64,000 nt of DNA from a virus: IMG/VR virus record IMGVR_UViG_3300027839_000001, positions 1 to 64,000 of that record; one strand, given 5' to 3'. Position 1 is the first letter of the stretch. Each line of letters opens with the position of its first letter. The notes beneath the pieces are model-generated. The model was not told the origin of the DNA, did no database searches, and worked only from the letters and a program-made list of their open reading frames with translations. The position numbers and the translations under genes were made by a program. Positions 4,382 through 25,196 of this stretch are shown one piece after another.

Positions 4382-4527
4382 TGCGTAAGTCCTTTAATTG
4401 AGAAAACGAGAAAAACTAAAAACGTTGCCTTCTATTAGTGCATTTGCCGCGCCAAAACTTATTTTATGCGTAAATGTCGCATACCCAGACTACCTATCTT
4501 AACAGAGTCAGACAGCTTGTCTTGAGC

Positions 4528-6186
4528 GTAACCCTATACGTAGCAACTACTTACAAAGTAATCCTACTAAATTGATAGAATTTTAGTTTAGTGCTGTTAG
4601 TTGTATAAGCAAGCACCAGTCGAGCAGCGCACGACTGAAATTGTATGACATTATGGCAGTTTTGTAACCCTATACGCTGCAACTACTTACGTCACTTATG
4701 CGATATATTAACTGCCACCGATGGTGGTAGAATGCCGATAGTGTATCAAACTGCTACACTCAGACAACTTGTCTGATACCGGCACGGCTCAATAGTGTAT
4801 CGTAATCGTACACCATTATGGCAGGACAAAATGTCTGGTACTAGTCCTTAGGTAGTAGTTATTGTCAATTCTGACAAACGCCGCTAATGTAATACTTATG
4901 TAAAAGTGCCTCTAAGTCCTTTGATAGTAAGGGTTTAAGATTATTGTCGCACCCTCTTATGGGGTATACGTTAGACTGGCATCGAATTCTAAGTCAGTCA
5001 AGCTGACTGACCATAGGCAAGCTGACTGACTTAGAACATATCAGTAGTTGTTTATATTTCCACTGGAAAGAACTAGTCAAGCTGACTGACCCTTAGTCAG
5101 CTTGACTGACTTAGAATGGTTGGGATTAGTCGAGTTGTCTAGGGGTCAGTCAGTTTGACTGAATTTAAGGACGATAATAATAGACAACTTGACTATGGGT
5201 CAGTCAGCTCGACTGACTTTCCACTGGAAAGAAATAGACAACTTGACTATGGGTCAGTCAGCTTGACTGAATTGATGGTAGGATTAGTCGAGTTGTCTAG
5301 GGTATAGACGTTTTGACTAGTAAATCAAGTTTAGACGGTTTTTTACGGTGTTCTAGGCCGTTTTTTTGCCTTAAGCCAGTCAAGTTGTCTAGGGGTCAGT
5401 CATGTTGTCTGAAGTCTCACCGAATATGATGATATTATCACGCGAATAAGCAATTTTTCACCGTTTTTCATAGTTTTGTCGGGGTACTGCCGCAACTCGA
5501 CCATAAAAAAATAGACATTTCCACTGTAAACATACTTTAGACTTTGTAAAACTCTTACAGTACTTAAAGTATTAATCTTACCAAACTAACCACAGCTCGC
5601 CCGAACTACGGAGTCAACTTATTTGCTATATCTACCGCACAATGCTAGTCGATCTAAGGTTCCTAAAGGATCAAAGAGAGTTAGAGTATATCCACAACCT
5701 CCACAAAGTAACACAAAAACGTGCCCAACAATCTGGGTAACATCAACTAACCCTATACCTGTAAAGGACTTACGAACGCTGGTGATACCTCGATACCCTT
5801 AAGTTCATTCTCGCCGTAAACCTTTACGGTGGAACTACTTAGGTTCTCCGCTATAAATAAAACAGTTTTTACGAACACAAATACGTAAGTCGTTTAATAG
5901 TAACAAGTTAAATATAATTCATTCCCCTATTTCAGATATATTACTGATGTTAGCACACCCCCCCCCTACTTTTGTTTTTTTTAAAACGTAGGAGTACTTA
6001 CTCTACTAGTACTGCTATTCTTACCAGGCTTTACTCCTCTGTGGGCTTTATACAGGGGTCCACCTACACTGTAAAAATACATAGACCCCCTGGCGGTGTT
6101 TTTTTTGAAAGTAGACTACCCCAAGCAATCCCAAGGGGGGCAATTGTGCGATCCTCGACGTAAGTACTTTCGTACAGGCGACTTCG
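4528..6186. repeat. 27-bp imperfect palindrome family, TAA(C/A)CCT-TAC-N5-AA(GG/CT)ACTTA-like, ~7 copies
   Basis: Copies at 4528-4554, 4664-4690, 4912-4938 (inverted), 5747-5773, 5816-5842, 5885-5911 (inverted); weaker copy at 6160-6186. Confidence 0.7.
4996..5410. repeat. Phased array of seven pairs of a 13-bp palindrome AG(T/A)C(A/G)-N3-(T/C)G(A/T)CT; candidate origin or packaging site
   Basis: Pairs start at 4996/5015, 5075/5095, 5128/5148, 5182/5202, 5236/5256, 5286/5306, 5378/5398; singles at 4510 and 4762. Confidence 0.85.
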
Positions 6187-8919: not shown

Positions 8920-9150
8920 ATGACCAAGCCAAAGACTAAGGGCGAGCTAGCCCTGCTCGCAGCAAGTAAAAAGAAATCCCAGTTCGTGACACCCATCACC
9001 ACAAAGCACTGCCTGTGGATCATGGCACCACATGCTAGGTGTGGATACAAGACAGGTGAGAACTCCTACTTCTGCAATGACCACCAGATCGAAGCAGACG
9101 CTGGCAAGTTACTCAGAGCGGAGATCGCTAAAGCGGAGAATACGTCATGA
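8920..9150 (+). CDS. small Cys/His (possible Zn-binding) protein
   Basis: C-x9-C-x9-C-x2-H; GGAGGA RBS. Confidence 0.65.
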   Translation: MTKPKTKGELALLAASKKKSQFVTPITTKHCLWIMAPHARCGYKTGENSYFCNDHQIEADAGKLLRAEIAKAENTS

Positions 9151-9581
9151 AAACCTACGAGTACTCAGCAGCAGTCACCTCATCATCTGCGAGGCACCCG
9201 ATCTATGATGGCGACACTGTACGCTTAGACATAGACTGTGGGTTCGGTATATGGAAACGCAACACAGTCTGCCGACTGTACGGGATCGACACACCTGAGA
9301 TGCGAGGAGCCGATAGAGAGTATGGAACGAAGTCCAGGGATGCACTCAGGGAGATACTCAGTACCGCAGAGAAAATCTGGATCAGGACCCACAAGGACAA
9401 GACAGGCAAGTACGGTCGCTACTTAGTAGAGATCTTCGTTCCGGTGACTGTCGAGCCTATGCTCTCTAAGATAAATTCAATAAAGGAGAAGGCAAGCGAT
9501 ATAGTACTAGACATAGAAGGAGTCAGATCGGTTAACGTAAACCTTCTGATGGTCATGCTAGGATTAGCAAACAACTACTAA
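9147..9581 (+). CDS. thermonuclease (SNase-like) family nuclease
   Basis: DGDT, RLYGIDTPE and GKYGRYL motifs. Confidence 0.9.
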   Translation: MKTYEYSAAVTSSSARHPIYDGDTVRLDIDCGFGIWKRNTVCRLYGIDTPEMRGADREYGTKSRDALREILSTAEKIWIRTHKDKTGKYGRYLVEIFVPVTVEPMLSKINSIKEKASDIVLDIEGVRSVNVNLLMVMLGLANNY

Positions 9582-9924: not shown

Positions 9925-11097
9925 GTGGAAATAAACGGAATCAACGAACAGATAGTAAAGCAGTGCAGTCAGCTTTACTTCAGGCAGTCAATGCTCAACG
10001 ACTTCCTGCTCTGTCCACAGATGGCAATGTACAGATGGGTCCTCGACATGGAAGAGTCGGAACCTTTCTACGCAGCCATCCTCGGTACGGCAGGACATGA
10101 AGTCGTGTACGAGATGCACGTTCGCAAGAAGCTAGACAGTACGTTCGGAGAACTGCTACAGGACTTCACTCGCTGTTACAACACAGAGATGGAGAAGCAG
10201 TCAACCAATCCTCCTATCCGTGCTGGCTGCGATTCCATAGAAGAGATGTTTGAAGAGAGCGCGTCTGAGTACATCCAGATGCTCCAAGGCTACCAAGAAC
10301 ACGAACGCAATCATGACTTCAGATCCACCATGCACGAACAGTCATTCGTACTGGAGATCCAAGACCCGATGTTCCCAGACAAGAAGCCTTACCTCTTCGT
10401 TGGTCAGATAGATCAAGGAGGAGTGTACGGTGATGGACTACGCAGCATTCGAGACATGAAGTTCAGGGCACAAGAGTTCAAGCCCTCTCGCGTTGAGTTC
10501 ATGCTGAACATGCAGATGACAATCTACTCAGCAGCAGTCAAGTGGGGCAACCCAGTCTGTCCAGAGTGCAAGCCTTGCTACGTTGACGATCCATTCGGTA
10601 TCAACAAAGAACTGGTATACAACGGGCCATGCGAAGACTGCCTAGCAATGGTAGGCACACCACGCTGGCCCCGAGAACTACCTGACGTAGTGGAGTTGGT
10701 TTGGATGAGAGACTTCATCCGTCGCCCCAAGGATCAGTACGCCAAGATGATCAAGGACAAGTCTTTACCCAAGGTCAAGTCAACCAAATCCAACAAGATG
10801 ATCATAGCCGAGAGGATATCAGACAAGTGGCTAGAAGGAGGAAAGAAAGGAGACTACATGGGGAAGTGCTTCATACCAGCGAAGCGAACCCCCGAGCAAG
10901 TACAGATCTACATGTCAGACGTAATACGGATCTGCCGTCAGATCCATCGAGGAGACTTCTGGCGTAACCCCGGTAGTCACTGCGAGTTCTGGTGTAAGCA
11001 CACAGATCAATGCACTGACGGACTGGAACTACAAGTAGAAGAAGCCCAGCTACACAACATCAAGTCGTATTCAAGCGAAGACCCGTTTGGAATGTAA
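9925..11097 (+). CDS. PD-(D/E)XK (Cas4/RecB-like) exonuclease
   Basis: N-terminal CP, GTAGH, GQID...RDMK, QMTIY, C-terminal C-x3-C-x5-C; extra CPEC...CEDC insert; GTG start lies inside the palindrome after AGGAG. Confidence 0.85.
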   Translation: MEINGINEQIVKQCSQLYFRQSMLNDFLLCPQMAMYRWVLDMEESEPFYAAILGTAGHEVVYEMHVRKKLDSTFGELLQDFTRCYNTEMEKQSTNPPIRAGCDSIEEMFEESASEYIQMLQGYQEHERNHDFRSTMHEQSFVLEIQDPMFPDKKPYLFVGQIDQGGVYGDGLRSIRDMKFRAQEFKPSRVEFMLNMQMTIYSAAVKWGNPVCPECKPCYVDDPFGINKELVYNGPCEDCLAMVGTPRWPRELPDVVELVWMRDFIRRPKDQYAKMIKDKSLPKVKSTKSNKMIIAERISDKWLEGGKKGDYMGKCFIPAKRTPEQVQIYMSDVIRICRQIHRGDFWRNPGSHCEFWCKHTDQCTDGLELQVEEAQLHNIKSYSSEDPFGM

Positions 11098-11194
11098 CAG
11101 GAGATTTACAGTGGAAACTTTAACTGGGCAGCAGGCGTAATAAACTACCAAATGTTTCCTTTGATGAACACAACAGAGAAAGAAGAGGACAGTA

Positions 11195-11368
11195 ATGGGC
11201 CTACTAACGCTATTAAACAAGGAGATCGGGAAGAACAAGGACCTTCAGGAGGCGATATTAAGACTGGAGAAGCAAAATAGAATGCTCAGGGAGGAGCAGG
11301 ACAGGTGCGTATGTCAGCACAAAGTGTACGAAACCGCCCACTATACACGAACGCATGACCACAGTTAA
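11195..11368 (+). CDS. small coiled-coil protein (57 aa, below the ORF-track cutoff)
   Basis: Hand translation MGLLTLLNKEIGKNKDLQEAILRLEKQNRMLREEQDRC...; GAGGA RBS. Confidence 0.5.
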   Translation: MGLLTLLNKEIGKNKDLQEAILRLEKQNRMLREEQDRCVCQHKVYETAHYTRTHDHS

Positions 11369-11386
11369 CCCTATAACCCAAGGACC

Positions 11387-11788
11387 ATGACCATGATTGT
11401 AGTAATAGTCAACCCAATAGTTCTCGTTCCAAACGATCAAGGCAGCGAATTCGGGTATGCATGCTGCGAGGCAGCCCTTAATGCAGTCGACTTCTCTACA
11501 TACATAGAGGGCAGAAACGTAAGCAGGTACGACCTTAAAAAAAGGAATCCAGAGCATGCCGCAATAGATGAACTCACGTTCCCGTCGCTAACCGAACTGC
11601 CGGAGGGACACATCGTAGATCCAAAGCTAGAGGGAATGTTCGACGAAGGTGACTACACCAACACGTGCCACATCGGAATGAAGGATGGAAGATCGGTCCA
11701 CATCCTTGGCAACTACGATACATGGTGCAAGAGCGTATTGGGCCAGCTACAGTCGATGTCAACCCGCTCTCAGATCGTCAAGGGCTAG
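11387..11788 (+). CDS. hypothetical protein
   Basis: 133-aa ORF with AAGGA RBS. Confidence 0.7.
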   Translation: MTMIVVIVNPIVLVPNDQGSEFGYACCEAALNAVDFSTYIEGRNVSRYDLKKRNPEHAAIDELTFPSLTELPEGHIVDPKLEGMFDEGDYTNTCHIGMKDGRSVHILGNYDTWCKSVLGQLQSMSTRSQIVKG

Positions 11789-11819
11789 AGTGGGTCCATA
11801 ATCACGCGGAGAATTTCCA

Positions 11820-12635
11820 ATGGAAAAGCAAAAACCTAGTATCATTCAAGATCAGTCGCGTGCTGACACAGCAGGAGTAGAGTCAGTCAAGGTGGTAGTT
11901 CCAGGGAAGGAGCAGGCCACCACCTTGACGCCCAAGACCAGGGTAAGGCCAGAGATGGTCAAACGCAAGCCCGGCATGTCAAATAAGAAGACGGCAGCGG
12001 GCGTCACAGCAAGAGAGCCAATCAGTGTCATCTACAAAGAAGAGGATATAGGCAAGGAGTTAATAAAGAAGATCATATCTTGGTACGCAGTGGGAGACGC
12101 ACCGCTACACAAGATTTTAAGAATGGCTAACGAGCAGCGTAACGCTCAATGTCGCGGCGACCTGTACTACCTAGACGTGTACTCCATACTGTTTAATCAG
12201 TACAGAACAAAGGTAATAGTCCAGAGGACCAATAGACATCAGGGTGAAATGCTACTCACTGAGTTCGCTACGTTCTTCAAGAAGTTCAGAGAGGGACACA
12301 AGTTCAACGATTGCCTCAGGGCAATAGGAACAACATACTCACTCAATTTCTGCAAGAAGATCTACCAGCAGCTACTGAAGAGATGGAAGCAGGGTAAGTC
12401 GAGGAGCGATCAAGAGTCGGAAGAGTCGGAGAACGCAAGGCAGGAACTACTCGACCTGTCAGTCATTAGGCATGTTCAGGGAAAGGCGGCGATAGTAATC
12501 TTCATCCGAGACATACCCGAGGACCTAAAGGATTCCATCGCCAGAAACATCCCAGGCATATCTTTAGATACAGTCTCCGATAAGGTCGATGAATCAGGCC
12601 GTGTCGATAAAGAAAGCGAGGGTAAAGATGACTGA
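11820..12635 (+). CDS. hypothetical basic protein
   Basis: 271-aa ORF; ATG lies inside palindrome variant TTTCCAATGGAAA, after GGAG. Confidence 0.75.
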   Translation: MEKQKPSIIQDQSRADTAGVESVKVVVPGKEQATTLTPKTRVRPEMVKRKPGMSNKKTAAGVTAREPISVIYKEEDIGKELIKKIISWYAVGDAPLHKILRMANEQRNAQCRGDLYYLDVYSILFNQYRTKVIVQRTNRHQGEMLLTEFATFFKKFREGHKFNDCLRAIGTTYSLNFCKKIYQQLLKRWKQGKSRSDQESEESENARQELLDLSVIRHVQGKAAIVIFIRDIPEDLKDSIARNIPGISLDTVSDKVDESGRVDKESEGKDD

Positions 12636-13707
12636 CGTGAAGGAATGCGAGATGTCGAATTTCAGAGTATGGGCTATTCCCTCTTATGAGGAAGTTGATG
12701 CCCCTGAGATCGCAAACGGGATCAAGTGGACTCAGTCCAGGGGCCTGCCAGGACTACCGTGTAAGAGATCCGTAGTGTTCATCAACTACAGAAGGGACAG
12801 GGACTGGGCACTTGCCCTTGAAGTTTACACTGGAAACAAGACCGTCAAGGAAGCGGCAGTTCTAGAGCCTTTCTTTAATGAAGCTATCCATGTATTGGAC
12901 TTCACTCCTTCTCGGCCTCTTCAGCCTGAAGATCTAATGAAGTCAGTTCAAGACGCAGCGATACTGTCAATCTCTGCTTACAACGAGTCCGTCATGGCAG
13001 TCTCATCGACCCTGACCGAAGCTGACATAGAGGCATTATGTACAGACACAGCATTACTATGGGTGACCAGCTTTATAACAGCACCAGAACTGGCAGAGAA
13101 CTTTATTGGCTTCATAAGGGACGTTGACTTTTTCGTTGACGACATGTCCTCATATGGAGCGACGGTAAAGCTAGTAACCAGTGGAGAGATGGTCAACTCA
13201 GCCATTAAGATGACGGGTGCCTTAGATCCTAACATTCACACAGGACTCTTTGGTAACGCAGATCTCATGCCGTTCCACTCAGCTATATGGAAGAAATGCA
13301 TAGCCGAGAGAAGAAATATAATGCTGGCGTTTCCCACGAACCCATCAAAGATTTCTCCTGATGTCCACCCCGTTACTGGGGAAGGCGTACTCCCGCCTGC
13401 TGGCTACATGGTATTCGACACGCGGAAGTCTACCAGTTTAGTTGCGAGTTTCGCGGTTGAACCTGACTGGAGAGGTGCCGGTCTAGGTACATGCATGATC
13501 AGAAACTTCTTCAAGCTGTTCACTGGCAGCTTGACGTTCATACTGGATATAGACAGCGACACTAACCTCAACCTAGCTGGCTTCCTAAAGTCGGTAGCAA
13601 AGAAATTAGATAGGAAAATGAACGTAAGGGTAGTAGAACCAAAATTATTAACTGCACTGCCGGGGGAAAAGACGAGTGACCACCACATGTGGATTGAGCT
13701 TAAGTGA
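12628..13707 (+). CDS. protein with C-terminal GNAT (RimI-like) acetyltransferase domain
   Basis: GYMVF...SFAVEPDWRGAGLGTCMI acetyl-CoA-binding motif A (RxxGxG), followed by an N-containing motif B (DTNL). Confidence 0.75.
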   Translation: MTDVKECEMSNFRVWAIPSYEEVDAPEIANGIKWTQSRGLPGLPCKRSVVFINYRRDRDWALALEVYTGNKTVKEAAVLEPFFNEAIHVLDFTPSRPLQPEDLMKSVQDAAILSISAYNESVMAVSSTLTEADIEALCTDTALLWVTSFITAPELAENFIGFIRDVDFFVDDMSSYGATVKLVTSGEMVNSAIKMTGALDPNIHTGLFGNADLMPFHSAIWKKCIAERRNIMLAFPTNPSKISPDVHPVTGEGVLPPAGYMVFDTRKSTSLVASFAVEPDWRGAGLGTCMIRNFFKLFTGSLTFILDIDSDTNLNLAGFLKSVAKKLDRKMNVRVVEPKLLTALPGEKTSDHHMWIELK

Positions 13708-13762
13708 TAATAAGGTCCCCAGGCTTAACATTTCCAGTGTAAACTTTTTTCTCTAGCCCCTA

Positions 13763-13791
13763 TTGACAAGAAGATTATTTTCTGGTATAAT
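13763..13791 (+). promoter_or_regulatory. consensus sigma70 promoter for the SSB-like/parB operon
   Basis: TTGACA-17 bp-TATAAT with extended -10 TG; palindrome at 13731-13743 ends 19 bp upstream of the -35. Confidence 0.9.
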
Positions 13792-13897
13792 GATCATGTA
13801 CAGTCGATAGAAAATCAGTCGCAACATAACTTGAGAAGTTTAAACGATCCCCACATTCTAACCCGTCGCCCCCAAGTCGCACAAAAAAGGAGACTCT

Positions 13898-14887
13898 ATG
13901 TCACCGGACCCCACTGGCGAAATTATCACACAAGATGAAGTCGCACCAGACACAGAAATCAGCATTCGAGAGCCTACTCAAGACGAACTTGAGCTTCTGC
14001 AAGGTGCATTCGACGACAACGTCGATCAGCAGGCAGAGATTGCCATCAGTCGCGTTGCTATCCTACAGCCAGCATCGCCGGAAGTAGCACAAGGCAAGCC
14101 AGGGTACAAGGCAGGCCAGTTGGTTGACAGTATCAACCGTTCCATCCTGACACAGCGAGCCAAGCCGCTATGGTTGATCGACCAGGGCGTTAACCCTGAC
14201 GAGTTAACGCTAGTGGACAACATGATGTTCGTTCCTATCGCAAAGCTTCCATTCGAGTATGTCAAGTGGAAGACACTTGAAGAACGAACGGAAGAAGAAC
14301 CAATCCCTTTCCACTGGAAATCTCTCGACAAGACAGAAGAGAAAGTACGGGAAGGAATCTGGAAGAAGCACGGCGGGACATACGGAACGCTCCCAGATCA
14401 AGATGGACGACCGCCAGTCACCGTCAACACGAACTACTTGGTCCTTCCAATCGACCAAGAGACAATGACAGCAATGTCAAACTTCGTAGTACTGACTTTC
14501 AGTAGAACGTCGAGCAAAGCAGGTGAGAAGCTTGCCACATTCATGGCTGGTCACCGCTTTGAAAGCCTAGCACCTTACGGTCGAACATACTTCGTTTCGA
14601 CAAATCAGAAAGTAAGGGTTGACGCGGGCCAGGAGCAGACGTATTATGTAATGGACATCAACAAGGGCGGCAAGACATCTATTGCATGCCCAGCGATGAT
14701 TCCAATGGTTCATCAGATTGCACTTCAACTAGCTAGCAAGGAGACAGGAAAGGACGCACAGCTTGCGATGATCAACGCAACAGACCTAAGCGACGACACC
14801 AGTAACAAGTCAGGCGAATCGAACGAAGCCCCAACAGACAACGCTGATCCGTTCGCCGCACCAGAAGAGAACGACGACGACTTCTAA
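13898..14887 (+). CDS. putative single-stranded DNA-binding/recombination protein
   Basis: Acidic tail ending DPFAAPEENDDDF; ILQPASPEV...GxKAG N-terminal pattern; position in the replication module. Confidence 0.55.
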   Translation: MSPDPTGEIITQDEVAPDTEISIREPTQDELELLQGAFDDNVDQQAEIAISRVAILQPASPEVAQGKPGYKAGQLVDSINRSILTQRAKPLWLIDQGVNPDELTLVDNMMFVPIAKLPFEYVKWKTLEERTEEEPIPFHWKSLDKTEEKVREGIWKKHGGTYGTLPDQDGRPPVTVNTNYLVLPIDQETMTAMSNFVVLTFSRTSSKAGEKLATFMAGHRFESLAPYGRTYFVSTNQKVRVDAGQEQTYYVMDINKGGKTSIACPAMIPMVHQIALQLASKETGKDAQLAMINATDLSDDTSNKSGESNEAPTDNADPFAAPEENDDDF

Positions 14888-14958
14888 AGATTTCCACTGT
14901 AAACACTGTAAACACTAGACCTAACAATTTCTAACTTTCAAACCCAGGAGACATTAAC

Positions 14959-16335
14959 ATGTCACAAACAGTAGCAGGTGCAAACCAAGCAGTAACATCC
15001 GACGCAACTAACACGGGCGATGCACATGTGATCGTGCTTAACCTCGAAGACATTTATGTTGAGCCAAAGAACAACGCTCGCAAGACCTACAGCGACGAAC
15101 ACATCGAAGGACTCGCAGCGTCAATCGAATCGATGGGTGGCTTGCTCCAAGCTGTCGGAATCGTCGCAGTCAATCCAGGCCCGAAGAACGACGGTAAGTC
15201 ATGGGAACTGGTATACGGATTCTGTCGCGTCATGGCCCTTCGCCTCCTCGGTGGTGACTGGGAGAACAACGTCAAGTGCGGTATCATGCTACCCAAAGAC
15301 TCCGGTGAGTTGAAGGCAGCACAGATGATCGAGAACCTCCACCGTTCTAATCTCAATCCCATTGAGACGGCGGCTGGTATTGCTGAGATCATGAAGGCAG
15401 AAGGCTTGAACCAAAAGCAAGTCGGTGCATTGGTTGGCGTAAAGGAAGTTACTCTTTCCCGCCTCCTTAGCTTGCTACGATTGCCGCCCGAGTGCCAGAA
15501 GATGGTCGCAGACGAAGTCATCTCTCTCAGTCACGCACGAGAGATCGTTCGCTTCGCTCCGAAGGACGACATGGACAAGTATCGTGAGCTTTGCGAGACT
15601 GCAAAGGACATGACCTACGGCGAGTTCGAGTCTCACCTTCAGAATCTTTACGGTGGAAATGCATCGGCTGAAGAATCGGCTGAAGGCGATGTTACTGCCA
15701 AGAAAAGTACTGACGCCGCACCAAAGCGACCTCAGTTGCGAACGGCAAAGGATCTTCAGGAAAACTTCCTGACCTTCCTCAGCAACAAAGCGAAGAGTGC
15801 AGACGGTGAAGAGAAGAAGTACACCGCCAAGCAACTTCGTGAAGCCCAGGTTGACGTACTAAATTGCGTGATGCGTGTGCCTGAGACGAAGCTCGAAGCT
15901 GCAATCGCTCCGTTCCTCGCAGCCAAGGCTGAGAAGGATGCGGCAGATAAGGCCAAGAAGGACTCAGGAAAGAACAAAGAGAAGTTCTTTAGTGATTCCG
16001 TTAAGACAGTTAACGCCAACTTGAAAAGCCCTCTCGGCCCCGATGGCAACCGACCGTTCCCCGATTACACTTCTGCCGCTAAGCCTGTTGTTGACGCAAT
16101 GGCGATTGCGTCAGAAGAGAATCTGAAGGATATCGGATTCGAGTTCGATGGCGAGACGTTTGAAGTCGATCTTCGCAAAGCGTGGGAAACCGACTACAAA
16201 GAGAAGCGTGCGACCGCTGAGAAGAAAGCCAAGGACAAGGCTAGCAAGCTAGCCAAAGAGAAAGCTGATAAAGAAGCTGCTGAATTGGGCGAAGCTGCAA
16301 GCGATGCCGATGCAGAAGCTGACGCTGTTTCTTAA
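14959..16335 (+). CDS. parB: ParB/Spo0J/KorB-family DNA-binding protein with a long K/A/E-rich C-terminus
   Basis: NNARK...LAASI...GLLQAV (box I), LVYGFCR (box II), IENLHRSNLNPIE, HTH GLNQKQVGALVGVKEVTLSRLLSLLRLP, ISLSHARE. Confidence 0.92.
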   Translation: MSQTVAGANQAVTSDATNTGDAHVIVLNLEDIYVEPKNNARKTYSDEHIEGLAASIESMGGLLQAVGIVAVNPGPKNDGKSWELVYGFCRVMALRLLGGDWENNVKCGIMLPKDSGELKAAQMIENLHRSNLNPIETAAGIAEIMKAEGLNQKQVGALVGVKEVTLSRLLSLLRLPPECQKMVADEVISLSHAREIVRFAPKDDMDKYRELCETAKDMTYGEFESHLQNLYGGNASAEESAEGDVTAKKSTDAAPKRPQLRTAKDLQENFLTFLSNKAKSADGEEKKYTAKQLREAQVDVLNCVMRVPETKLEAAIAPFLAAKAEKDAADKAKKDSGKNKEKFFSDSVKTVNANLKSPLGPDGNRPFPDYTSAAKPVVDAMAIASEENLKDIGFEFDGETFEVDLRKAWETDYKEKRATAEKKAKDKASKLAKEKADKEAAELGEAASDADAEADAVS

Positions 16336-16359
16336 AGTGGGGACTTGGAGATTCAGCTA

Positions 16360-16403
16360 GTGGCGGTGGGTGGCCTATTCACACCCGCCGCCACGCTTTT
16401 ATT
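16360..16403 (+). terminator. Rho-independent terminator after parB
   Basis: GTGGCGGTGGGTG / CACCCGCCGCCAC stem followed by GCTTTTATT. Confidence 0.8.
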
Positions 16404-16497
16404 CTGCACCAAGCTTCTGCTACCCTTTACACTGTAAACATCCCCACCTTCTGCTTAGCTACTACAGTCAGGAATACGCCAGAAAGGACTCTGATAC

Positions 16498-17379
16498 ATG
16501 TCGCGCAAAGACTTGCGTGTGCTGACCCCATCAGGATCTACCCTAAGGACGCTAGCCTCAGATACCCCACGCCAAAAGGAAGTCAAAGAACCCATAAACG
16601 CAGTGAAGCCAGAGCTTACTGAGGCTCAACTATGGGCAGAGTACACGACAACAAAATCAGACGAAGCACGCGGAGAACTATTTCGCAGATTTCATAGCGT
16701 AGCCCTGAAGTTTGCGAGATCATACTACTCACGCAAGATGCCAGCCCATTCATCAGCCAACTGCGATGACTTGGAGCAGGCTGCGAGTGTAGGGTTACTA
16801 GAAGCAATTGGTTCGTACTCGCCCGACAAGGGAACTAACTTCCAGCAGTATGCGTACAAGAGGATCAGCGGGTCTATCATAGACTGCCTTCGAGCGCATC
16901 AGCATTATCCCCGGTCGATTTCAAAGAACCGCCGTGAGTTAAAGCCTCTCATTGCCCGTGTTGCCACAAGATTACAAAAGCCCCCGACTACAGACGAGAT
17001 ATGCGAACACGTTGGAGAATGGGTGAGGCCGATACTAGAAGACCCACTCTACAAGACAGGCGTATTCACTCAGGTCAAGTCAACGGACGAGAACGGAAAT
17101 CTAATAGACGTAGTCACTACGATCCAGTGCAGTGGCACGACGCGAAAGGACCCACTCAGCAGGATAGAGCTAGAGCGAGCCATCCTCGGAGTAATCAAAG
17201 ACAGATGCATACGTAAGACCATCTGGCTGTACTACTGGTGGAACATACCATTCAAGAGGATAGCTAGGTTCGAGAAGTGCAGCATGTCAACGATAGCCAA
17301 TAGGCATGCTACAGGAATCGCAATACTAAAAGAGCATTTCACATACGCAGAGTTCAGAGACATCGTAAGCGACAAGTAA
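16498..17379 (+). CDS. sigma70-family (FliA/WhiG-like) RNA polymerase sigma factor
   Basis: DDLEQAASVGLLEAIGSYSPDKGTNFQQYAYKRISGSIIDCLR...PRS (region 2), PTTDEI (region 3), YYWWNIPFKRIA...STIANRH (region 4). Confidence 0.9.
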   Translation: MSRKDLRVLTPSGSTLRTLASDTPRQKEVKEPINAVKPELTEAQLWAEYTTTKSDEARGELFRRFHSVALKFARSYYSRKMPAHSSANCDDLEQAASVGLLEAIGSYSPDKGTNFQQYAYKRISGSIIDCLRAHQHYPRSISKNRRELKPLIARVATRLQKPPTTDEICEHVGEWVRPILEDPLYKTGVFTQVKSTDENGNLIDVVTTIQCSGTTRKDPLSRIELERAILGVIKDRCIRKTIWLYYWWNIPFKRIARFEKCSMSTIANRHATGIAILKEHFTYAEFRDIVSDK

Positions 17380-17404
17380 TTTCCACTGTAAAGAAGGACG
17401 CATT

Positions 17405-17881
17405 ATGGGAATCAACGATGCAAAAGGCGTGGACACTGGCAGCAAGTTCCTGCCCGGTACAGGCCACGGTGTCATGTATTCACACACCGTGACTTACATC
17501 GAGTCCTGCTTCTACTTATGTACGCCTTACAGCCATTGCAGGATGGACGTAATGGTGGCTCGCTACGAAGTAGCACATGAGATCCTGGCTTACCTCCACG
17601 ACATTGGTGAGATGTGCTTCTCTCCTATCGTCCACTCTCACAAGATCTCAATGAACCATGGAGGTCAGAAAGCGTCGTACAATCACTGGCGTAAGTTCGA
17701 CGAACACATGATGCTGTCTTGCGGTGAGCTACTGTTCGCCAGCGTCCCAGGCTACGAAGAGTCTTACGGCATGAGCGAGGAGCTTTCCTTCGCAGAGAAG
17801 CATGGACTCAAGGTACACAGAGTAGACCCAACAGTAGACTTCAAGATCAAGTATAGCAATGCTTTACTGGGGTACAAGTAA
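17405..17881 (+). CDS. DUF1937-like / nucleoside deoxyribosyltransferase-fold protein
   Basis: YLCTPYSH, FSPIVHSH, WxxFD, ESYGxxxE motifs. Confidence 0.7.
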   Translation: MGINDAKGVDTGSKFLPGTGHGVMYSHTVTYIESCFYLCTPYSHCRMDVMVARYEVAHEILAYLHDIGEMCFSPIVHSHKISMNHGGQKASYNHWRKFDEHMMLSCGELLFASVPGYEESYGMSEELSFAEKHGLKVHRVDPTVDFKIKYSNALLGYK

Positions 17882-18375
17882 TGAAGCTCATGATATGCGG
17901 CCACGGTCGCCACGGTAAGGACACCGTAGCACTATTCTTCAAAGAGAATCTCGGAATGACGTTCGAGTCATCCAGCATGTTTTGCTGCAAGCTGTTCATC
18001 TTCGACAGGATACACAAGACATTCGGGTATGAAAATTTGATAGATTGCTTCAATGACAGAAGCAACCACAGGGCCTTATGGTATGAACTGATATGCGAAT
18101 ACAACGAAGACGACAAGGCACGCCTGTCAAAGAAGATCTTCGCTGAGTATGACATGTATGTTGGAATCAGGAACGCAGAAGAACTTGCTGAAGCCAGGAA
18201 GCAGAAGGTGTTCGACCTATCAATATGGGTAGACGCTGACAGAAGGAAGCCCGTAGAACCGACTAGCTCCAATACAGTGACCGAAGACATGTGCGACATA
18301 ACGATAAACAACAACGGAACAGAGGAAGATTTACAGTTGAAAGTGGCATTCCTAACTGACTTACTCGTATTCTAG
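17881..18375 (+). CDS. deoxynucleoside monophosphate kinase-like P-loop protein
   Basis: ICGHGRHGKDTVA, GIRNxxE, DITINNNGT. Confidence 0.8.
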   Translation: MKLMICGHGRHGKDTVALFFKENLGMTFESSSMFCCKLFIFDRIHKTFGYENLIDCFNDRSNHRALWYELICEYNEDDKARLSKKIFAEYDMYVGIRNAEELAEARKQKVFDLSIWVDADRRKPVEPTSSNTVTEDMCDITINNNGTEEDLQLKVAFLTDLLVF

Positions 18376-18386
18376 GAGAGGGTGAC

Positions 18387-18632
18387 ATGGCTCAAGTAAG
18401 ATCGTTTGAGAGCAAGCACTTCATCGAGAGATTGTTTTGCGACTGCGGAACCGAGATGCAGTACGAGTTCTGTGCAGCCACAGAGGTTGTAAATCCAGGC
18501 AAAGATGCAGTGCTTACCTACAAGCATGTATGCAGGGGATGCGGCCACATCGAGAACACTGAAGGTAGGTTCTACCCATTTGGTGTCAACACTGAAGTAC
18601 AGGACTCATTATATAACGATGACGGTGAGTAG
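18387..18632 (+). CDS. small Zn-ribbon protein
   Basis: CDCG...CRGCG. Confidence 0.65.
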   Translation: MAQVRSFESKHFIERLFCDCGTEMQYEFCAATEVVNPGKDAVLTYKHVCRGCGHIENTEGRFYPFGVNTEVQDSLYNDDGE

Positions 18633-18658
18633 GTTCTCAATTTACACTGGAAAGAATC

Positions 18659-19570
18659 ATGGCTAAGACAGACCCACAAGAGAGGACGTTCGATGTATCA
18701 GTGGATCAGGTGTACTTCCATGAACCAAAGACCAACTATGCAATAGTGTCCTGCTCAATCACCCATCATGCTAACCCAGATCACATAGGGAACAAGCTGG
18801 TATGCAAAGGAAACCTTCACCCAGTTCACGTTGGTGCCATCTACCACGTAAAGGGAATCCCAGTCTTCGACAAGAAGTTCAACAAGTGGGGAGTTAAGGT
18901 CAGCGATTGGAAGGAAACCACTTCACTCACAGAGAAAGGACTGATCAACTACTTGATACGTGAAGGACCAAACGTAGGAGACAAGAGGGCAGCAGAGATA
19001 GCAGAGACTATAGGATCGAACGCCATAGACAAGATAGCAGATGACTACAAGTGCCTTCTTTCAATCAAAGGGGTCACTGAGGACAGAGCCAAGGAGCTAT
19101 CCGAATGGGCCAAGGGAGAGAAGAGGAACATGACAACCAAGACAATGCTGTACGGACTAGGCTTAGGTCCAGCATTAGTCGCAAAGATACTTGGATTCTT
19201 CGGCCAGGCAGCGCATGCTAGGCTGGACAAGGAATGCTTCAGGCTAACGTCAGTCGATGGCATAGGATTCAAGACAGCGGCAATGATAGCAGATGCACTG
19301 GGCATACCCTCGATCAGGCCAGATAGAGTTCAAGCTGGAGTATTCTATATGCTCCAAGAGATGATGAAGGAAGGTGGGCATACCAGGGTTCCACAGGATA
19401 AGCTAGTCACTGAGGCATGTAAGTTACTCGGAGTAACTAGACAGAAGGTGGTCGAGCAGATGAAAGTCATGCTGACCAACGGAATGGTTTGTACTAACAG
19501 AAGCGATCCGGCTAAGTTCTCTTCGACGCCGGAGATATTTGATAAGGAAGTTTCCAGTGGAAAAGTATGA
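18659..19570 (+). CDS. RecD2-like helicase, N-terminal half (OB fold + helix-hairpin-helix)
   Basis: GLINYL...GPNVGDKRA, LLSIKGV, VDGIGFKTAAMIA, RVQAG...EGGHT; no Walker motifs. Confidence 0.88.
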   Translation: MAKTDPQERTFDVSVDQVYFHEPKTNYAIVSCSITHHANPDHIGNKLVCKGNLHPVHVGAIYHVKGIPVFDKKFNKWGVKVSDWKETTSLTEKGLINYLIREGPNVGDKRAAEIAETIGSNAIDKIADDYKCLLSIKGVTEDRAKELSEWAKGEKRNMTTKTMLYGLGLGPALVAKILGFFGQAAHARLDKECFRLTSVDGIGFKTAAMIADALGIPSIRPDRVQAGVFYMLQEMMKEGGHTRVPQDKLVTEACKLLGVTRQKVVEQMKVMLTNGMVCTNRSDPAKFSSTPEIFDKEVSSGKV

Positions 19571-20120
19571 CGAACTAGCGGCAAGAACAGAGGCACCGAT
19601 AACACCAGGGATGAAGAGGCGATTCTCCGGTACGATCATGACCCTTGAGGACGAGCTAGATACTCTATCCCAGGTAGGCAAGAGACTAGATGTAATCAAG
19701 AGACACATCTATTACAACGATCCAAAGTCTACAGAGCAGTTGAAGCACTGGCTGCATGACGAAGAAGAGAAGGACGACAAGTTCACTGACAACAAGTCAG
19801 TTAGATTACTACACGGAATCATAGGTATCATGACCGAGGCTGGAGAATTAGCGGAGGTATTCGCAGACGACAGCACGATGTACGGCAGGGAAGAGGACAT
19901 CGACAAGGTGAACCTCATCGAAGAATGCGGAGACTTGATGTGGTACATCGGTCTGGTCCTATCAGCATGCGGTGTCGATATAGACTACTGCCAGAGAAAG
20001 AACATAGAGAAGCTCAGGGCTAGATTCCCCGAAAAATTCAATGAAGGCGATGCGTTGTCGCGTGACCTAGAGAACGAACGAAATGCATTAGAAGACGAAG
20101 AAGAAGGAGACATAGTATGA
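19557..20120 (+). CDS. MazG-like nucleoside triphosphate pyrophosphohydrolase
   Basis: RLLHGIIGIMTEAGELAE...EECGDLMWY...NIEKLRARFPEKF; likely GTG start inside palindrome 19551 after AAGGA. Confidence 0.88.
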   Translation: MEKYDELAARTEAPITPGMKRRFSGTIMTLEDELDTLSQVGKRLDVIKRHIYYNDPKSTEQLKHWLHDEEEKDDKFTDNKSVRLLHGIIGIMTEAGELAEVFADDSTMYGREEDIDKVNLIEECGDLMWYIGLVLSACGVDIDYCQRKNIEKLRARFPEKFNEGDALSRDLENERNALEDEEEGDIV

Positions 20121-20380
20121 AACCTAGCCAAATGGAAAAAAGAATTCAGGAGTTGACTCAAGAGCGAGATGAGCTGAAGGCTGGCTATCTTAGTCCTGAC
20201 GATTCTATCGTCGCTGAAGTAGCAATCCTCAAAAAGATCGTGTCAGATCTTGAGGAAACAAACTCTAAGCTTGAAGCTGACACACTGACCATGGCACAGA
20301 AGATTTCCGACCTTGAAGAGGAGCTTGGCGAAGAGATAGATGAAGATGAAGACGAAGACGAAGACGAAGGCGACATCTAG
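20117..20380 (+). CDS. acidic coiled-coil protein
   Basis: 87 aa, heptad pattern, (DE)n tail; ATGA overlap with the MazG stop. Confidence 0.7.
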   Translation: MKPSQMEKRIQELTQERDELKAGYLSPDDSIVAEVAILKKIVSDLEETNSKLEADTLTMAQKISDLEEELGEEIDEDEDEDEDEGDI

Positions 20381-20406
20381 TCATCTATTCCTACCGTTCA
20401 CGCCTG

Positions 20407-20439
20407 GGGTTTCCACTGTAAAGTGGGGACCCTGTTTTT
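20407..20439 (+). terminator. Rho-independent terminator whose stem-loop contains the 13-bp palindrome
   Basis: GGGUUUCCACU-GUAA-AGUGGGGACCC then UGUUUUU; GNRA loop. Confidence 0.7.
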
Positions 20440-20479
20440 CCCTCACGGTAATCCCCACGCCAAGAGAGGTTCATTCGCG

Positions 20480-21856
20480 ATGCCAGAACTAGCAGAAGAC
20501 TCGACAGCAAAGCATACCACATACTTCTATACTCCAGAGAACTTCGCAGGAGAGCACGAGCTTGCCTATTACGTGAAGAGAATAATCAAAGCCAAGGTAG
20601 ATGCCATACCAGAGGTCACTGAAGGGCTTAAGGAAGATCAGCCGAAGGCAGTGCACTTGGCATGCACCCAGCCTCTAAGCATACTCAGAGGCAGGCCGGG
20701 AACAGGAAAGACCACCACGCTAAGGCAGATAGTGGAGTCATTCGACAACGCAGGACTGTCTGGAGCGATCTTCGCTCCTACCGGAAAGGCACGAAAACGT
20801 GCAGATGAGGTAGTGAACGACCCAGGCAAGAAGCCATTCAAGAACGCACCTGAATGCAAGACCATACATCGTGGCCTTGAGTATAGTCCGACCGATGGCG
20901 GATTCAAGTTCGGACCAAGGAAGAACCTAGATTACGACTACGTAATCCTCGACGAGTTCTCCATGGCTGGCCTTAGCATAGCTAAGTCCCTCTTCTCAGC
21001 AATCAACCCAAAGAAAACCAGGGTGATTCTATGTGGAGATCCAAATCAATTGCCGTCAGTCGACAGTGGCAACGTGATGCACGATCTGATAATGTCTCGT
21101 GCCATACCAGACACCAACCTGAACTATCTGTTTAGACAAGGTGCTGACAGCGGCATAGCGTACAACGCAGGACGCATACTGAATGGTGAGGACCTAGCCA
21201 AGACAGATCCCAAGACAGGTGAGCTATTCAATGACTTCTACTTCGTCGAGAAGAGAGATCCTGAACTAGCAAGAGACTACATCATCAACTGCGTAAGCGA
21301 GTCCATACCCGAGAATAGGAATCTGAAGCATGCAGACATACAGGTTCTTTCCCCTGGAAAGAAGTCCGAGGTGGGCACAGTCGCACTGAACGACGGACTC
21401 AGAGACAGGATCAATCCAGGCAAGGGCGGTGGATATAGAGGGCTGAGAGTAGGCGACAGAGTCATCAACCGTAAGAATAACTATGAACTAGAGATAGTTA
21501 ACGGTGATGTAGGCACAGTTATTTCCACTGGAAACCACGGACTGACTATCAACTTTGGCCCAGGTGCTGGCCCAGAAGGAGATGGCCTAGTTGAATTAAA
21601 CGCCGATAATGCAGAGAGCGTTTACTTGGCGTATGCTTTTACAGTGCATAGCTCGCAGGGATCTGAGTTCCCGGTGTGCGTCATACCTTTATTCAAGGCT
21701 CACTACAGACTACTGTTTCGCAACATGCTCTACACTGGAGCTACACGACCAAAGCAACTCACCCTTCTGGTTGGAGATCCTTTGGCACTGAAGCTCTGTA
21801 TTGACACTAGCGTGGTAGACAAACGATCCACTGGATTGCAAGGACTGCTGAGATAA
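20480..21856 (+). CDS. RecD2-like SF1B helicase, C-terminal motor half
   Basis: GRPGTGKTT, APTGKA, TIHR, DEFSM, GDPNQLPSV, FRQ, NGDVG, YAFTVHSSQGSEF, LYTGATR. Confidence 0.93.
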   Translation: MPELAEDSTAKHTTYFYTPENFAGEHELAYYVKRIIKAKVDAIPEVTEGLKEDQPKAVHLACTQPLSILRGRPGTGKTTTLRQIVESFDNAGLSGAIFAPTGKARKRADEVVNDPGKKPFKNAPECKTIHRGLEYSPTDGGFKFGPRKNLDYDYVILDEFSMAGLSIAKSLFSAINPKKTRVILCGDPNQLPSVDSGNVMHDLIMSRAIPDTNLNYLFRQGADSGIAYNAGRILNGEDLAKTDPKTGELFNDFYFVEKRDPELARDYIINCVSESIPENRNLKHADIQVLSPGKKSEVGTVALNDGLRDRINPGKGGGYRGLRVGDRVINRKNNYELEIVNGDVGTVISTGNHGLTINFGPGAGPEGDGLVELNADNAESVYLAYAFTVHSSQGSEFPVCVIPLFKAHYRLLFRNMLYTGATRPKQLTLLVGDPLALKLCIDTSVVDKRSTGLQGLLR

Positions 21857-21879
21857 TTTCCAGTGGAAAGGAATGACAC

Positions 21880-24800
21880 ATGGATAAGATGACGACCGAC
21901 CAGTTGAAGGAAGAGATCGTAAGATCACTTGATATAGTAACATTCTATGAATCACATTGCGGCGATGGACAGGATTTCGGTGGAGGAAGACAGAACGGGT
22001 GGACCTCAAAAAGGGTCCTATGCCCACTGCATTCAGACCGGAACACGCCCAGCTTCTTTGTAAACGCTGAGACAGGAGGATTTAAATGTCATGCATGCGG
22101 TAAAGGCGGTAGCATATTTGATTTCTGGATCATAAAATCCGGCCTAGCACCAGATGATAAGACGAACTTTGCGAAAGCATTGGTTGCATTAGCAGATGAT
22201 GCAGGTGTAGACATAAAGCACTGGAAAGATAAGCCCGCCCTAACCCCAAAGACTAAGTCAGCACAGCTTAAAAGGAAAGACGCTGACATCATCCCGAAGG
22301 TAAATAAGGCGGACGCGATGGATATCGCTAACGCCCCGATAGATACCATCGTAGTGGATACCTTCAATAAAGCTCTACGCCCAGAGCATTTCATGTACCT
22401 ACTCAAGAACAGGGGCCTCAAGGCACCTACGATTGAGAAGGCTTGCATCGGATGGGACAAGACTTGGAAAGTAAAGAGCAACGATGGTCAGTGGACAGAC
22501 GGACGCTACACCATACCAGTCAGGAACAAGAAGGGTGAAGTAAGGAACGTAAGGGGATACTCACCTCAGGCTGACGCATCATCCAAGATGATGAACCTAG
22601 TAACAGACAGGGGTTCACCGGCAGAGAGAAGGCACGGCACGCCGGTCAGGCTGTACAATCTAGACAGGCTGATAGCTGAGAACTGGGATCACGTAGTCAT
22701 ATGCGAGGGCGAGTTTGATTGCATACTGTTGAATCAGATGTTCGCAGATGCTGGACTCACTACCTATGGTGCTGTCACTGGCACCCATGGTGTCAAAAGT
22801 TTTGCACCTGAGTGGATGGAGTATCTCTTCGGTAAGTTCGTATACATCTGCTTCGACTGCGACGAAGAAGGCAAGCTGTCATCTCACAACGTAGCCAATA
22901 AGTACTTCCTCAAGGCACTGGAGGCATCCAAGTTTTCCACTGTAAAGATTATAGACCTGCCGCTGGAAGGAACGAAAGACTCGAAGGACCTCACCGACTT
23001 CTTCCTTAAGTCAGAGCTTAACACCAATGACTTCCTTAAGATAATGGAAGAAACGCCAGAGCTTATATGCGGAGGCATGGACGGGGACGAGGCCACAGTC
23101 GAGGCTGAAGAAGTAGACAACCTAGTCGTTGCCCTGAAAAACAGGAAGTACATCGACAAGAAGGTCACCGTGCCCATCACCATATCAGGTACAACATCAA
23201 AGATCTTCCATGCTATACGTAGCTACAAGATAAAGAAATGCCCACTGCTCGCAGGTGGTGAATGCTGTCACGCTGACGCTGGCACACAGACTATACCATA
23301 TGGGCACGCCCTGTTCATTGAAGCATGCATGCAGAAAGAGAGTGCAAACCTCAGGTCCATAGCCGAGATAGCATGTGCCAAGGGAAAGAAGTGCACGGTT
23401 GAGCCTATAACCAAGGTAGTCATGGAGGAGTACTACGCTCACCAAGTAGTGGAGAGATGGAGGGCTGAAGAAGATCAGGACGGCAGGCTACAGAATTCAC
23501 AGGAGCTAGTTCAAACCCCAGTGTATATCCTTCAGCCAGAGGACAACATCACGATCCAGCCGCAGAACTACATGGCTACAGGCTGGATACGAACGCACCC
23601 GCACACCGCTATAGCTACCCTGTTCGTGCAAGAGATGGTGCCAATGGAAGAGGACTGGCGACAGTTCGACATGGCACGGTCAGACAACAGGGAGGTAATG
23701 CAAGCACTGAAGGATGAGTTTACCGTACCTGAGATAATGCACGACCTAGTGCATGGGGTTACCAAGATCTATGATGCCGATCACATCCTGCTTACAGTCC
23801 TCCTCACTTACCTCTCACCATTGCACTACAACTTTAATGGAGGAAGAATCAGAGGCTGGGTCAACAGTGCCATCCTCGGTGACTCAGGCACAGGGAAGTC
23901 AGCGACTTATACTGCTCTATCCGACTGGATTGAACTCGGAGACTTGTTTTCGGCTTTATCTGGAACAAGGACTGGCCTGCTATACGCAATCAAACAGAAG
24001 GGCGGCGAGTGGATGATATCGATTGGTCGATACGTCCAAGCCTCATGTAAGATCATAGCAATCGATGAGACGCAAGAGAGTACAAAGGAAGAGATCAAGC
24101 GAATGGCGATAGCCATGGACACTGGCTTTCTAAGCATCGAGCAGGTAGCCAGTGGCGGGTATCACACACAGACAAGAACGATCTTCCTCATGAACCCCAA
24201 GGATGCAAACGGAGAAGCCGCCACGATATCCGACTTCGTCTTCGGGTGCGAAGCACTGAGGGAATGCTTCGACCCTATGTTTATTAGGCGTCTCGACCTA
24301 GCCGTGTTTTCCACTGGAAAGCATGACTATGATTTTTACAATCAGAAGTCAGAGATAGATGCAGAGATAAGGCTTACATCGAAAATGCTGAGAAGCTTAG
24401 TTCACTGGGCATGGACTAGAAAGATAGATCAGATACACTGGTCGCCAGAGGCTACGGACATGTGCCTTGAGAAGACGACGGAGCTATCAGACAAGTACGG
24501 GTATGTTGACGACATACCATTGGTCAATCCTCAGGACTTCAGGCTGAACCTAGCTAGGCTATCAACAGCCTATGCCGTACTGGACAGAAGCTTTACTGAT
24601 GACCTAATGGCTCTGAACGTAGAGCCGGAACACGTGGCCGCGATGGCTATGTTCATAGATTCAATCTACAGTTCGCCCGCCTGCTTGCTTCACCAGAAGT
24701 CCAATCAGAACAGAAAGAGAAAGACACTGTCTGACTTCGATGAGATTAGGGAAGTATTCGAGGAGACTATCAAGCAGGCCAAGGACTCCTCCAATCAATT

Positions 24801-25182: not shown

Positions 25183-25196
25183 ATCAGGAGTTTACA

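Follow-up and report, generated by a model that had tools for sequence, protein, structure and literature searches.

Bases 1-64000 of the complete 86,403-bp virus record IMGVR_UViG_3300027839_000001 (IMG/VR), the stretch analysed here and referred to in the following as the window, carry a gene for a ParB-family protein, which we term ParB1, and are strewn with copies of a 13-bp palindrome, TTTMCASTGKAAA, that recurs about once per kilobase and forms what we call the lattice. The parB1 gene (14959-16335, plus strand) encodes 458 amino acids and is the second gene of a two-gene operon. Its partner (13898-14887, plus strand) specifies a Pam3_Gp34-like protein (PF23977) of 329 amino acids. The operon is preceded by a perfect sigma70-type promoter on the same strand (13763-13791; TTGACA and TATAAT separated by 17 bp, with the TG of an extended -10 element), which is the sole 12/12 match between positions 4000 and 20000, and it is followed by an intrinsic terminator (16355-16403, plus strand) with a 13-bp G+C-rich stem and a subsequent U run (-36.3 kcal/mol, z -4.4). 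Since the promoter is perfect and the terminator strong, ParB1 is predicted to be well expressed, at least on paper.

Lattice sites accompany the operon from one end to the other. An exact copy, TTTCCAGTGTAAA (13731-13743), ends 19 bp upstream of the -35 element of the operon promoter, and another exact copy is found inside the gene for the Pam3_Gp34-like protein (14308-14320). The likewise exact TTTCCACTGTAAA (14891-14903) is situated between the stop codon of that gene and the ribosome-binding site of parB1, a copy with one mismatch, TTTACGGTGGAAA, lies within parB1 (15647-15659), and the exact copy TTTACACTGTAAA (16426-16438) is located just past the parB1 terminator. A preliminary description of this DNA had listed the sites at 13731, 14891, 15647 (with one mismatch) and 16426 as well as the perfect promoter with a palindrome 19 bp before its -35 element, and all of these were indeed recovered. 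After the right half of the site at 14891, CACTGTAAA occurs as a direct repeat (14896-14917), such that an extra half-site is present just upstream of parB1.

A lattice of evenly spaced palindromes

The lattice is far more populated than expected by chance, and its spacing is more even than random. In the window, where it extends from 105 to 63143, 72 matches to TTTMCASTGKAAA were found at no more than one mismatch, 60 of them exact and 12 with a single mismatch, against 0.31 expected. The whole genome contains 80 exact copies, or 95 when one mismatch is allowed, and not a single match to a reversed control pattern. Neighboring sites are about 1 kb apart, with a coefficient of variation of the spacing of 0.47 for exact sites and of 0.43 with one mismatch allowed. 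When the sites were placed at random in 10,000 simulations, the mean coefficient was 0.98 and the lowest value was 0.66. The largest gap between lattice sites amounts to 1806 bp.

The placement of the sites relative to genes has two sides. On the one hand, 34 of the 80 exact sites lie at or between gene boundaries, where 8.5 would be expected (p = 2e-13). Ten sites start at the very first base after a stop codon (e.g., those at 25191, 38699, and 60763), and several overlap start codons or take the position of the Shine-Dalgarno sequence, the word being squeezed into minimal gene junctions. On the other hand, 46 sites fall within open reading frames, and they do so in all three reading frames and on both coding strands. 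Long genes contain internal copies every 1-1.8 kb, and the spacing rule therefore tracks the length of the DNA and not the genes.

The sites follow a distinct grammar. The central base is C or G in 80 of 82 otherwise perfect copies. Among the 160 half-sites, 113 read TTTCCA, which we term strong, and the remainder read TTTACA, which we term weak. Combinations of two weak halves are depleted (one seen, about seven expected), and the only such site among the 80 is the one at 16426, just past the parB1 terminator. In the mixed sites with C in one half and A in the other (45 of 80), the central C stands beside the strong half in 34 cases. The base flanking the word is not T on the left and not A on the right, and there is no conservation further out. 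Isolated half-sites are not enriched (41 found, 34 expected). None of the 45 mixed sites has hairpin potential, and the symmetric sites reach only -2.7 kcal/mol. On the basis of the C/G centre, the depletion of weak pairs, the lack of enriched half-sites and the absence of hairpins in mixed sites, we read this grammar as the signature of a symmetric protein dimer on duplex DNA and not as that of an RNA or cruciform element.

Outside this genome, the lattice was absent from about 90 contigs with generic ParBs, from about 100 random viral loci and from three phages that encode a homologous primase-helicase. It therefore does not accompany ParB genes or the replication module in general. A scan of IMG/VR with the exact word yielded, among the matches listed, single chance matches only. 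A literature search retrieved KorB, Noc, CTP-independent ParBs, ParB activators of phage dioxygenases and a 2025 survey of orphan ParBs, and no published description of a phage-wide, evenly spaced lattice of ParB-type sites was found in it. In the phage, dispersed sites that resemble those of KorB and Noc are taken to genome-wide density and regularity.

Contigs from marine samples exhibit few differences from the window overall and none in an exact lattice site within 10000-21999. The one-mismatch copy at 18330-18342 differs in the contigs of one seawater run (18330 T>A and 18333 A>G), where it is further from the motif.

An orphan protein of the ParB/Noc/KorB fold

Profile searches and a structural model concur in assigning residues 22-232 of ParB1 to a ParB N-terminal nucleotide-binding domain followed by a ParB helix-turn-helix (HTH) domain. 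The Pfam profile HTH_ParB (PF17762) matches residues 131-212 with 60.4 bits at a cut-off of 22.6 (E 2e-16), and four PHROG ParB families match residues 9-306. A profile built from the ParB1 family, aligned from residue 44, finds Noc (7ol9, 1e-26), ParB (7o0n, 2e-26), and KorB (8qa8, 5e-11). The AlphaFold model of ParB1 (predicted local distance difference test score, pLDDT, 85) retrieves ParB-CDP (7bnk) in Foldseek at 2e-12, has template modeling (TM) scores of 0.67-0.76 to open forms of Noc (7nfu), ParB-parS (6t1f), and KorB (8qa9), and its DNA-binding domain superposes on that of Noc bound to its site (6y93, TM 0.79) and of KorB bound to its operator OB (1r71, TM 0.75). Judged by profiles and model, ParB1 is thus a genuine protein of the ParB/Noc/KorB fold with an HTH domain and a divergent N-terminal sequence, in agreement with its first assignment to the ParB family.

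The family to which ParB1 belongs comprises about 65-75 full-length cluster representatives, as revealed by an exhaustive profile-free search. They share 25-40% identity and stem nearly all from metagenome assemblies; among the contigs that encode them, the longest recorded ones, for P0014, P0018, and P0020, span 57-105 kb. Scans of viral, metagenome and genome contigs with ParB1, its homologues P0018 and P0163, four sub-family alignments and a 14-base DNA word as queries returned no full-length member of the family, only generic N-terminal ParB matches, and a tblastn comparison with GenBank phages and PLSDB plasmids produced nothing beyond weak matches to the N-terminus. In the family alignment, R41, G87, R90, Q122, and N126 are invariant and E125 and R129 nearly so. 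These columns correspond to boxes I, II, and III, which make up the nucleotide pocket in ParB CTPases. For KorB, R117 and N146 have been reported to be needed for clamp closure and long-range action (PMC11790492). If assigned by motif position, and not by alignment, R90 and N126 of ParB1 would be their counterparts.

Residues 234-255 of ParB1 are disordered. They are followed by a confidently modeled helical domain (residues 263-456) that is conserved in the family and ends in a helix rich in K, A, and E. This domain is without recognizable relatives, Pfam does not match ParB1 anywhere beyond residue 212, and the domain is distinct from the canonical C-terminal dimerization domain of ParB (PF23552). 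The K/A/E-rich C-terminal extension of the preliminary description is thus real as far as the last helix is concerned, while the idea of a mere low-complexity tail has to be given up.

Neither PF13614 nor PF01656 has a match anywhere in the complete 86,403-bp genome, the window included, although both profiles match in 14 of 14 control genomes. The absence of parA, first noticed for the window, therefore extends to the entire phage. The ParA-binding motif (L/F/I)G(K/R)G(L/F/I) (PMC12704722) is also missing, both from ParB1 and from a second ParB-like protein, ParB2, that is encoded outside the window and will be considered below. Because the genome is devoid of ParA and the protein of a ParA-binding motif, ParB1 is to be regarded as strictly orphan and not as part of a canonical ParABS system.

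Candidate readers of the lattice

Among the systems to which the phage can be compared, KorB of plasmid RK2 (IncP-1) shares the geometry of the site. Its operator OB, TTTAGC(G/C)GCTAAA, has the same 13-bp TTT-N7-AAA layout and the same C/G centre as the lattice word, and the likeness in length, ends and centre pointed out in the preliminary description thus stands. RK2 carries 12 OB sites on about 60 kb, whereas the phage has 80-95 sites on 86 kb that are evenly spaced and lie mostly inside genes. Both systems combine a ParB fold and an HTH domain with dispersed operators, some of which are promoter-proximal (in the phage, one lies 19 bp before the -35 element of the parB operon). KorB is a ParB-family CTP clamp whose action extends to promoters at distances of up to 1.5 kb (PMC11790492; for the OB system see also PMC5577506). 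This range is of similar scale to the largest lattice gap of 1.8 kb, and no phage DNA would therefore be beyond the reach of such a clamp. KorB cooperates with IncC, which is a ParA, and with the clamp-locking proteins KorA and TrbA, whereas the phage lacks ParA and has no recognizable partner of the KorA/TrbA type, neither the Pam3_Gp34-like protein nor the palindrome array at 4510-5410 described below having been examined for such a role. In addition, the C-terminal domain of ParB1 differs from that of KorB, and in sequence the ParB1 family is nearer to Noc and chromosomal ParB than to KorB.

Noc from Bacillus is the best match to ParB1 in both sequence and structure. It has about 70 sites on a chromosome of 4.2 Mb, against one per kilobase in the phage, and it reaches the membrane through an N-terminal amphipathic helix. 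The first 20 residues of ParB1 are polar and disordered and thus unlike the membrane-binding N-terminus of Noc. Like ParB1, Noc is an orphan ParB paralogue whose sites are scattered over the replicon (PMC7383237, PMC8429893), and it tethers DNA to the membrane (PMC8429893). The phage half-site, when written ATTTCC with its frequent flanking A, is identical to positions 1-6 of the consensus of the Noc-binding site (NBS), TATTTCCC-GGGAAATA (the corresponding parS consensus is TGTTTCAC-GTGAAACA). The NBS is an even palindrome of 14/16 bp, whereas the half-sites of the lattice are 1 bp closer together.

Against this background, we tentatively put forward ParB1 as the best single candidate for a reader of the lattice, while the broader statement that one of the two ParBs of the phage, be it ParB1 or ParB2, reads it appears rather probable to us. 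The earlier reading of ParB1 as the protein that recognizes the palindrome is hence supported in part. Apart from the sigma factor, ParB1 has the only sequence-specific DNA-binding domain recognized by Pfam among the approximately 65 of 108 open reading frames that were scanned. Starting from what is observed, i.e., the fold, the orphan status and the expression signals of ParB1, the statistics of the lattice and its likeness to ParB sites, we infer binding, nucleotide dependence, sliding and purpose as follows. ParB1 would be a dimer of the ParB/Noc/KorB class, made early by host RNA polymerase from the consensus promoter. The HTH domains of the dimer would recognize TTTMCASTGKAAA, the N-terminal domains would bind a nucleotide, probably CTP, and then close, and the closed clamp would slide from the site onto the flanking DNA. 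With loading sites no more than 1.8 kb apart, the whole phage chromosome would become coated and host DNA would not. The coat could serve in silencing, in compaction, in the recruitment of other factors or in shielding the DNA from the phage's own early nucleases, and ParB2, the paralogue, may take part in this or stand in for ParB1.

In its most general form, this picture is that of a lytic-type marine phage in which one or both orphan ParBs are clamps that load at 80-95 even sites and coat only their own chromosome, within about 1 kb of every base, as a kind of 'self-marking' chromatin, with an even spacing maintained by selection so strong that coding sequence takes up the word in each of the three frames. 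We consider this a possible though doubtful scenario. ParB clamps are so far known to operate from a single centromere or a few operators. If the scenario were true, genome-wide coating of a viral chromosome would be a new use of the CTP-clamp principle, and it would bear on how phages discriminate between self and host DNA as well as on silencing and compaction.

Several observations weigh against ParB1 as a CTP-dependent reader of the lattice. The Pfam profile ParB_N (PF02195) scores 16.1 bits (E 7e-4) and thereby falls short of its cut-off of 26.3 bits, and membership in the ParB fold therefore rests on the profile and structure evidence given above. Box II reads GFCR in ParB1, as had been recognized from the outset together with the retention of its last arginine (the family-invariant R90), whereas the family has G[FY]RR; one arginine is hence missing. 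Box III reads ENLHR. The Glu of the GERR motif and the Gln of the QPR motif are absent throughout the family. We take these to be the residues that were changed in the E93A and Q52A mutants of Myxococcus xanthus ParB used for crystal structures. The residues changed in these mutants play a role in CTP hydrolysis. As a consequence of the GFCR sequence and the missing Glu and Gln, nucleotide turnover may be atypical in ParB1. Sequence specificity in ParB and Noc is set by positions 173, 179, 184, and 201, which are occupied by RTAG in ParB and by QKKR in Noc (PMC7383237). Mapped via the alignment with Noc, the corresponding residues of ParB1 are E/L/R/S. This combination fits neither code, an attempt to predict the site from the four positions was accordingly uninformative, and the likeness of the half-sites is not derivable from the known code. 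The spacing of the half-sites is off by 1 bp from both parS and the NBS, and the TTTMCASTGKAAA word is identical to the core of the archaeal mini-ORB (mini origin recognition box). Finally, autoregulation of parB1 had been suggested. The sites close to the gene do not argue for it, because the gaps around parB1 (577-954 bp) are ordinary for the lattice; the sites are no denser there than a 1-kb lattice already provides, and they are no evidence of autoregulation.

ParB2 deserves particular attention as a competitor. This very divergent paralogue of 620 amino acids is encoded 7.6 kb past the end of the window (genome positions 71637-73499, minus strand), directly upstream of the gene for an SNF2-family helicase of 1265 amino acids (genome positions 67814-71611). 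When the ParB1-family profile was compared with ParB2 using hhalign, residues 29-310 aligned with a probability of 95% (E 2e-8). The aligned motifs are NYR, GYCR (box II), ENDIR, an HTH with a VSQ recognition helix, and FSHLR, and every column that is invariant in the family is kept. ParB2 has its VSQ recognition helix in common with the majority of the ParB1 family, in which VSN, VSR, and VSK also occur; the helix of ParB1 reads LSR. Moreover, the genome contains two ParBs and also two classes of palindromes. The second class, AGWCR-N3-YGWCT, likewise 13 bp in length, is present in 15 copies at 4510-5410, within a 2.2-kb divergent non-coding region, where the copies are interleaved with three lattice sites; 1.7 copies would be expected in the window. 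This array could function as an origin, as a centromere or as a master operator, and it offers an alternative target for either ParB or for a replication initiator. All this speaks against an exclusive claim of ParB1 and makes ParB2 an equally valid candidate. The full alternative, in which ParB2 reads the lattice and ParB1 binds another target such as the 4510-5410 array or acts without sequence specificity, nevertheless seems unlikely to us. ParB2 has no match in Pfam or PHROG, word searches do not detect any homologues of it, and its fold assignment depends on the alignment with rows of the ParB1 family. Its model (pLDDT 68) best matches KorB (8qa9, E 5e-4, TM 0.63), but it was built on these same rows and is therefore biased towards the ParB fold. 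Large insertions interrupt the N-terminal domain, and the C-terminal tail is extremely acidic; the N-terminus of ParB2 is rich in lysine. ParB1 is much closer than ParB2 to proteins known to read half-sites of the TTTC type.

It is about as improbable that the ParBs are unrelated to the lattice and that it is read by an unrecognized phage protein or by a DNA-binding protein of the host. In favor of this possibility, most of the scanned proteins have no match in Pfam or PHROG, and the scan covered all but about 40 small open reading frames. Set against it are the length, ends, centre and half-site of the word, all of which fit ParB-family sites, and the fact that two ParB-fold HTH proteins without ParA would otherwise be left without a visible target.

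A further possibility, to which we assign a low probability, is that the lattice serves replication, i.e., that it is an ORB-like site at which the primase-MCM helicase or an unrecognized initiator is loaded or primes, with a start on either strand about every 1 kb. A distance of about 1 kb is on the order of bacterial Okazaki fragments and was counted in favor of replication. At 21880-25182, a DnaG-type primase with CHC2 zinc finger and Toprim domains is fused to an MCM P-loop helicase domain, and in this respect the phage resembles archaeal ORB systems. The euryarchaeal ORB consensus, GTTCCAGTGGAAAC, has TTCCAGTGGAAA at its core; a 'Ca. M. alvus' ORB with the sequence TTTCCACTGGAAAC is on record, as are TTACAGTGGAAA variants. 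The identity of the lattice word, as present at 2244-2256 for example, with the 12-base core of the mini-ORB recognized by Orc1/Cdc6 extends to the tolerated TTACA variant (PMC1868953, PMC4153887). However, ORBs occur in clusters at origins, have an orientation and are accompanied by a G-string, whereas lattice sites are evenly spread and, their flanks being unconserved, lack a G-string. In contrast to archaeal ORB systems, the phage has a bacterial host, as indicated by its sigma factor, promoter and terminator, and no Orc1/Cdc6; the winged-helix domain of the latter (Cdc6_C) has no match in the genome. Bacillus, Microbacterium, and Arthrobacter phages encode homologues that match the primase-helicase over its full length at 24-25% identity, and three phages with such full-length homologues contain neither the lattice nor any such word. 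Finally, the phage has a separate origin-like iteron array at 4510-5410.

The remaining idea is that of an element working in RNA or through a DNA hairpin or cruciform, such as a signal for processing or translation where genes meet. It could draw on the surplus of sites at gene boundaries and right after stop codons, yet the energetics of the sites and their regular recurrence inside long genes, in all frames and on both coding strands, make it very improbable.

ParB-fold proteins that function without ParA in phages or defence islands also include the activators of phage thymine dioxygenases (PMC13229309) and ParB-like proteins of the DndB/DpdB type, which act on DNA modification. These proteins have no obvious DNA-binding domain, whereas ParB1 possesses a canonical ParB HTH. 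DNA modification through a ParB-activated dioxygenase was considered for the phage and ruled out, the Tet_JBP domain not being found in its genome.

The phage and its host

The genome has a G+C content of 49% and is bounded by direct terminal repeats of 99 bp. Contigs that are at least 99% identical to the phage were found in metagenomes of seawater, sediment and brine, the work of over 20 studies dating from 2017 to 2025, and the phage is therefore widespread and marine. With at least 99% identity to the window, the reads and contigs of four marine runs offered no useful divergence.

The gene adjacent to parB1 (16498-17379, plus strand) encodes a phage sigma factor with a Pfam match to Sigma70_r2. 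This sigma70-type factor, the consensus -35/-10 promoter, the Shine-Dalgarno sites and the intrinsic terminator indicate that the host is bacterial. Two early nuclease genes, one for a homologue of staphylococcal nuclease and one for a PD-(D/E)XK nuclease, are located at 9147-9581 and 9925-11097 of the window. It may be speculated that a non-specific nuclease would give a self-protecting DNA coat a use. A tyrosine recombinase with a Phage_integrase domain and a SAM-like N-domain is encoded on the minus strand past the window (genome positions 64856-66025), and the phage may accordingly be temperate, or the enzyme may serve in the resolution of multimers.

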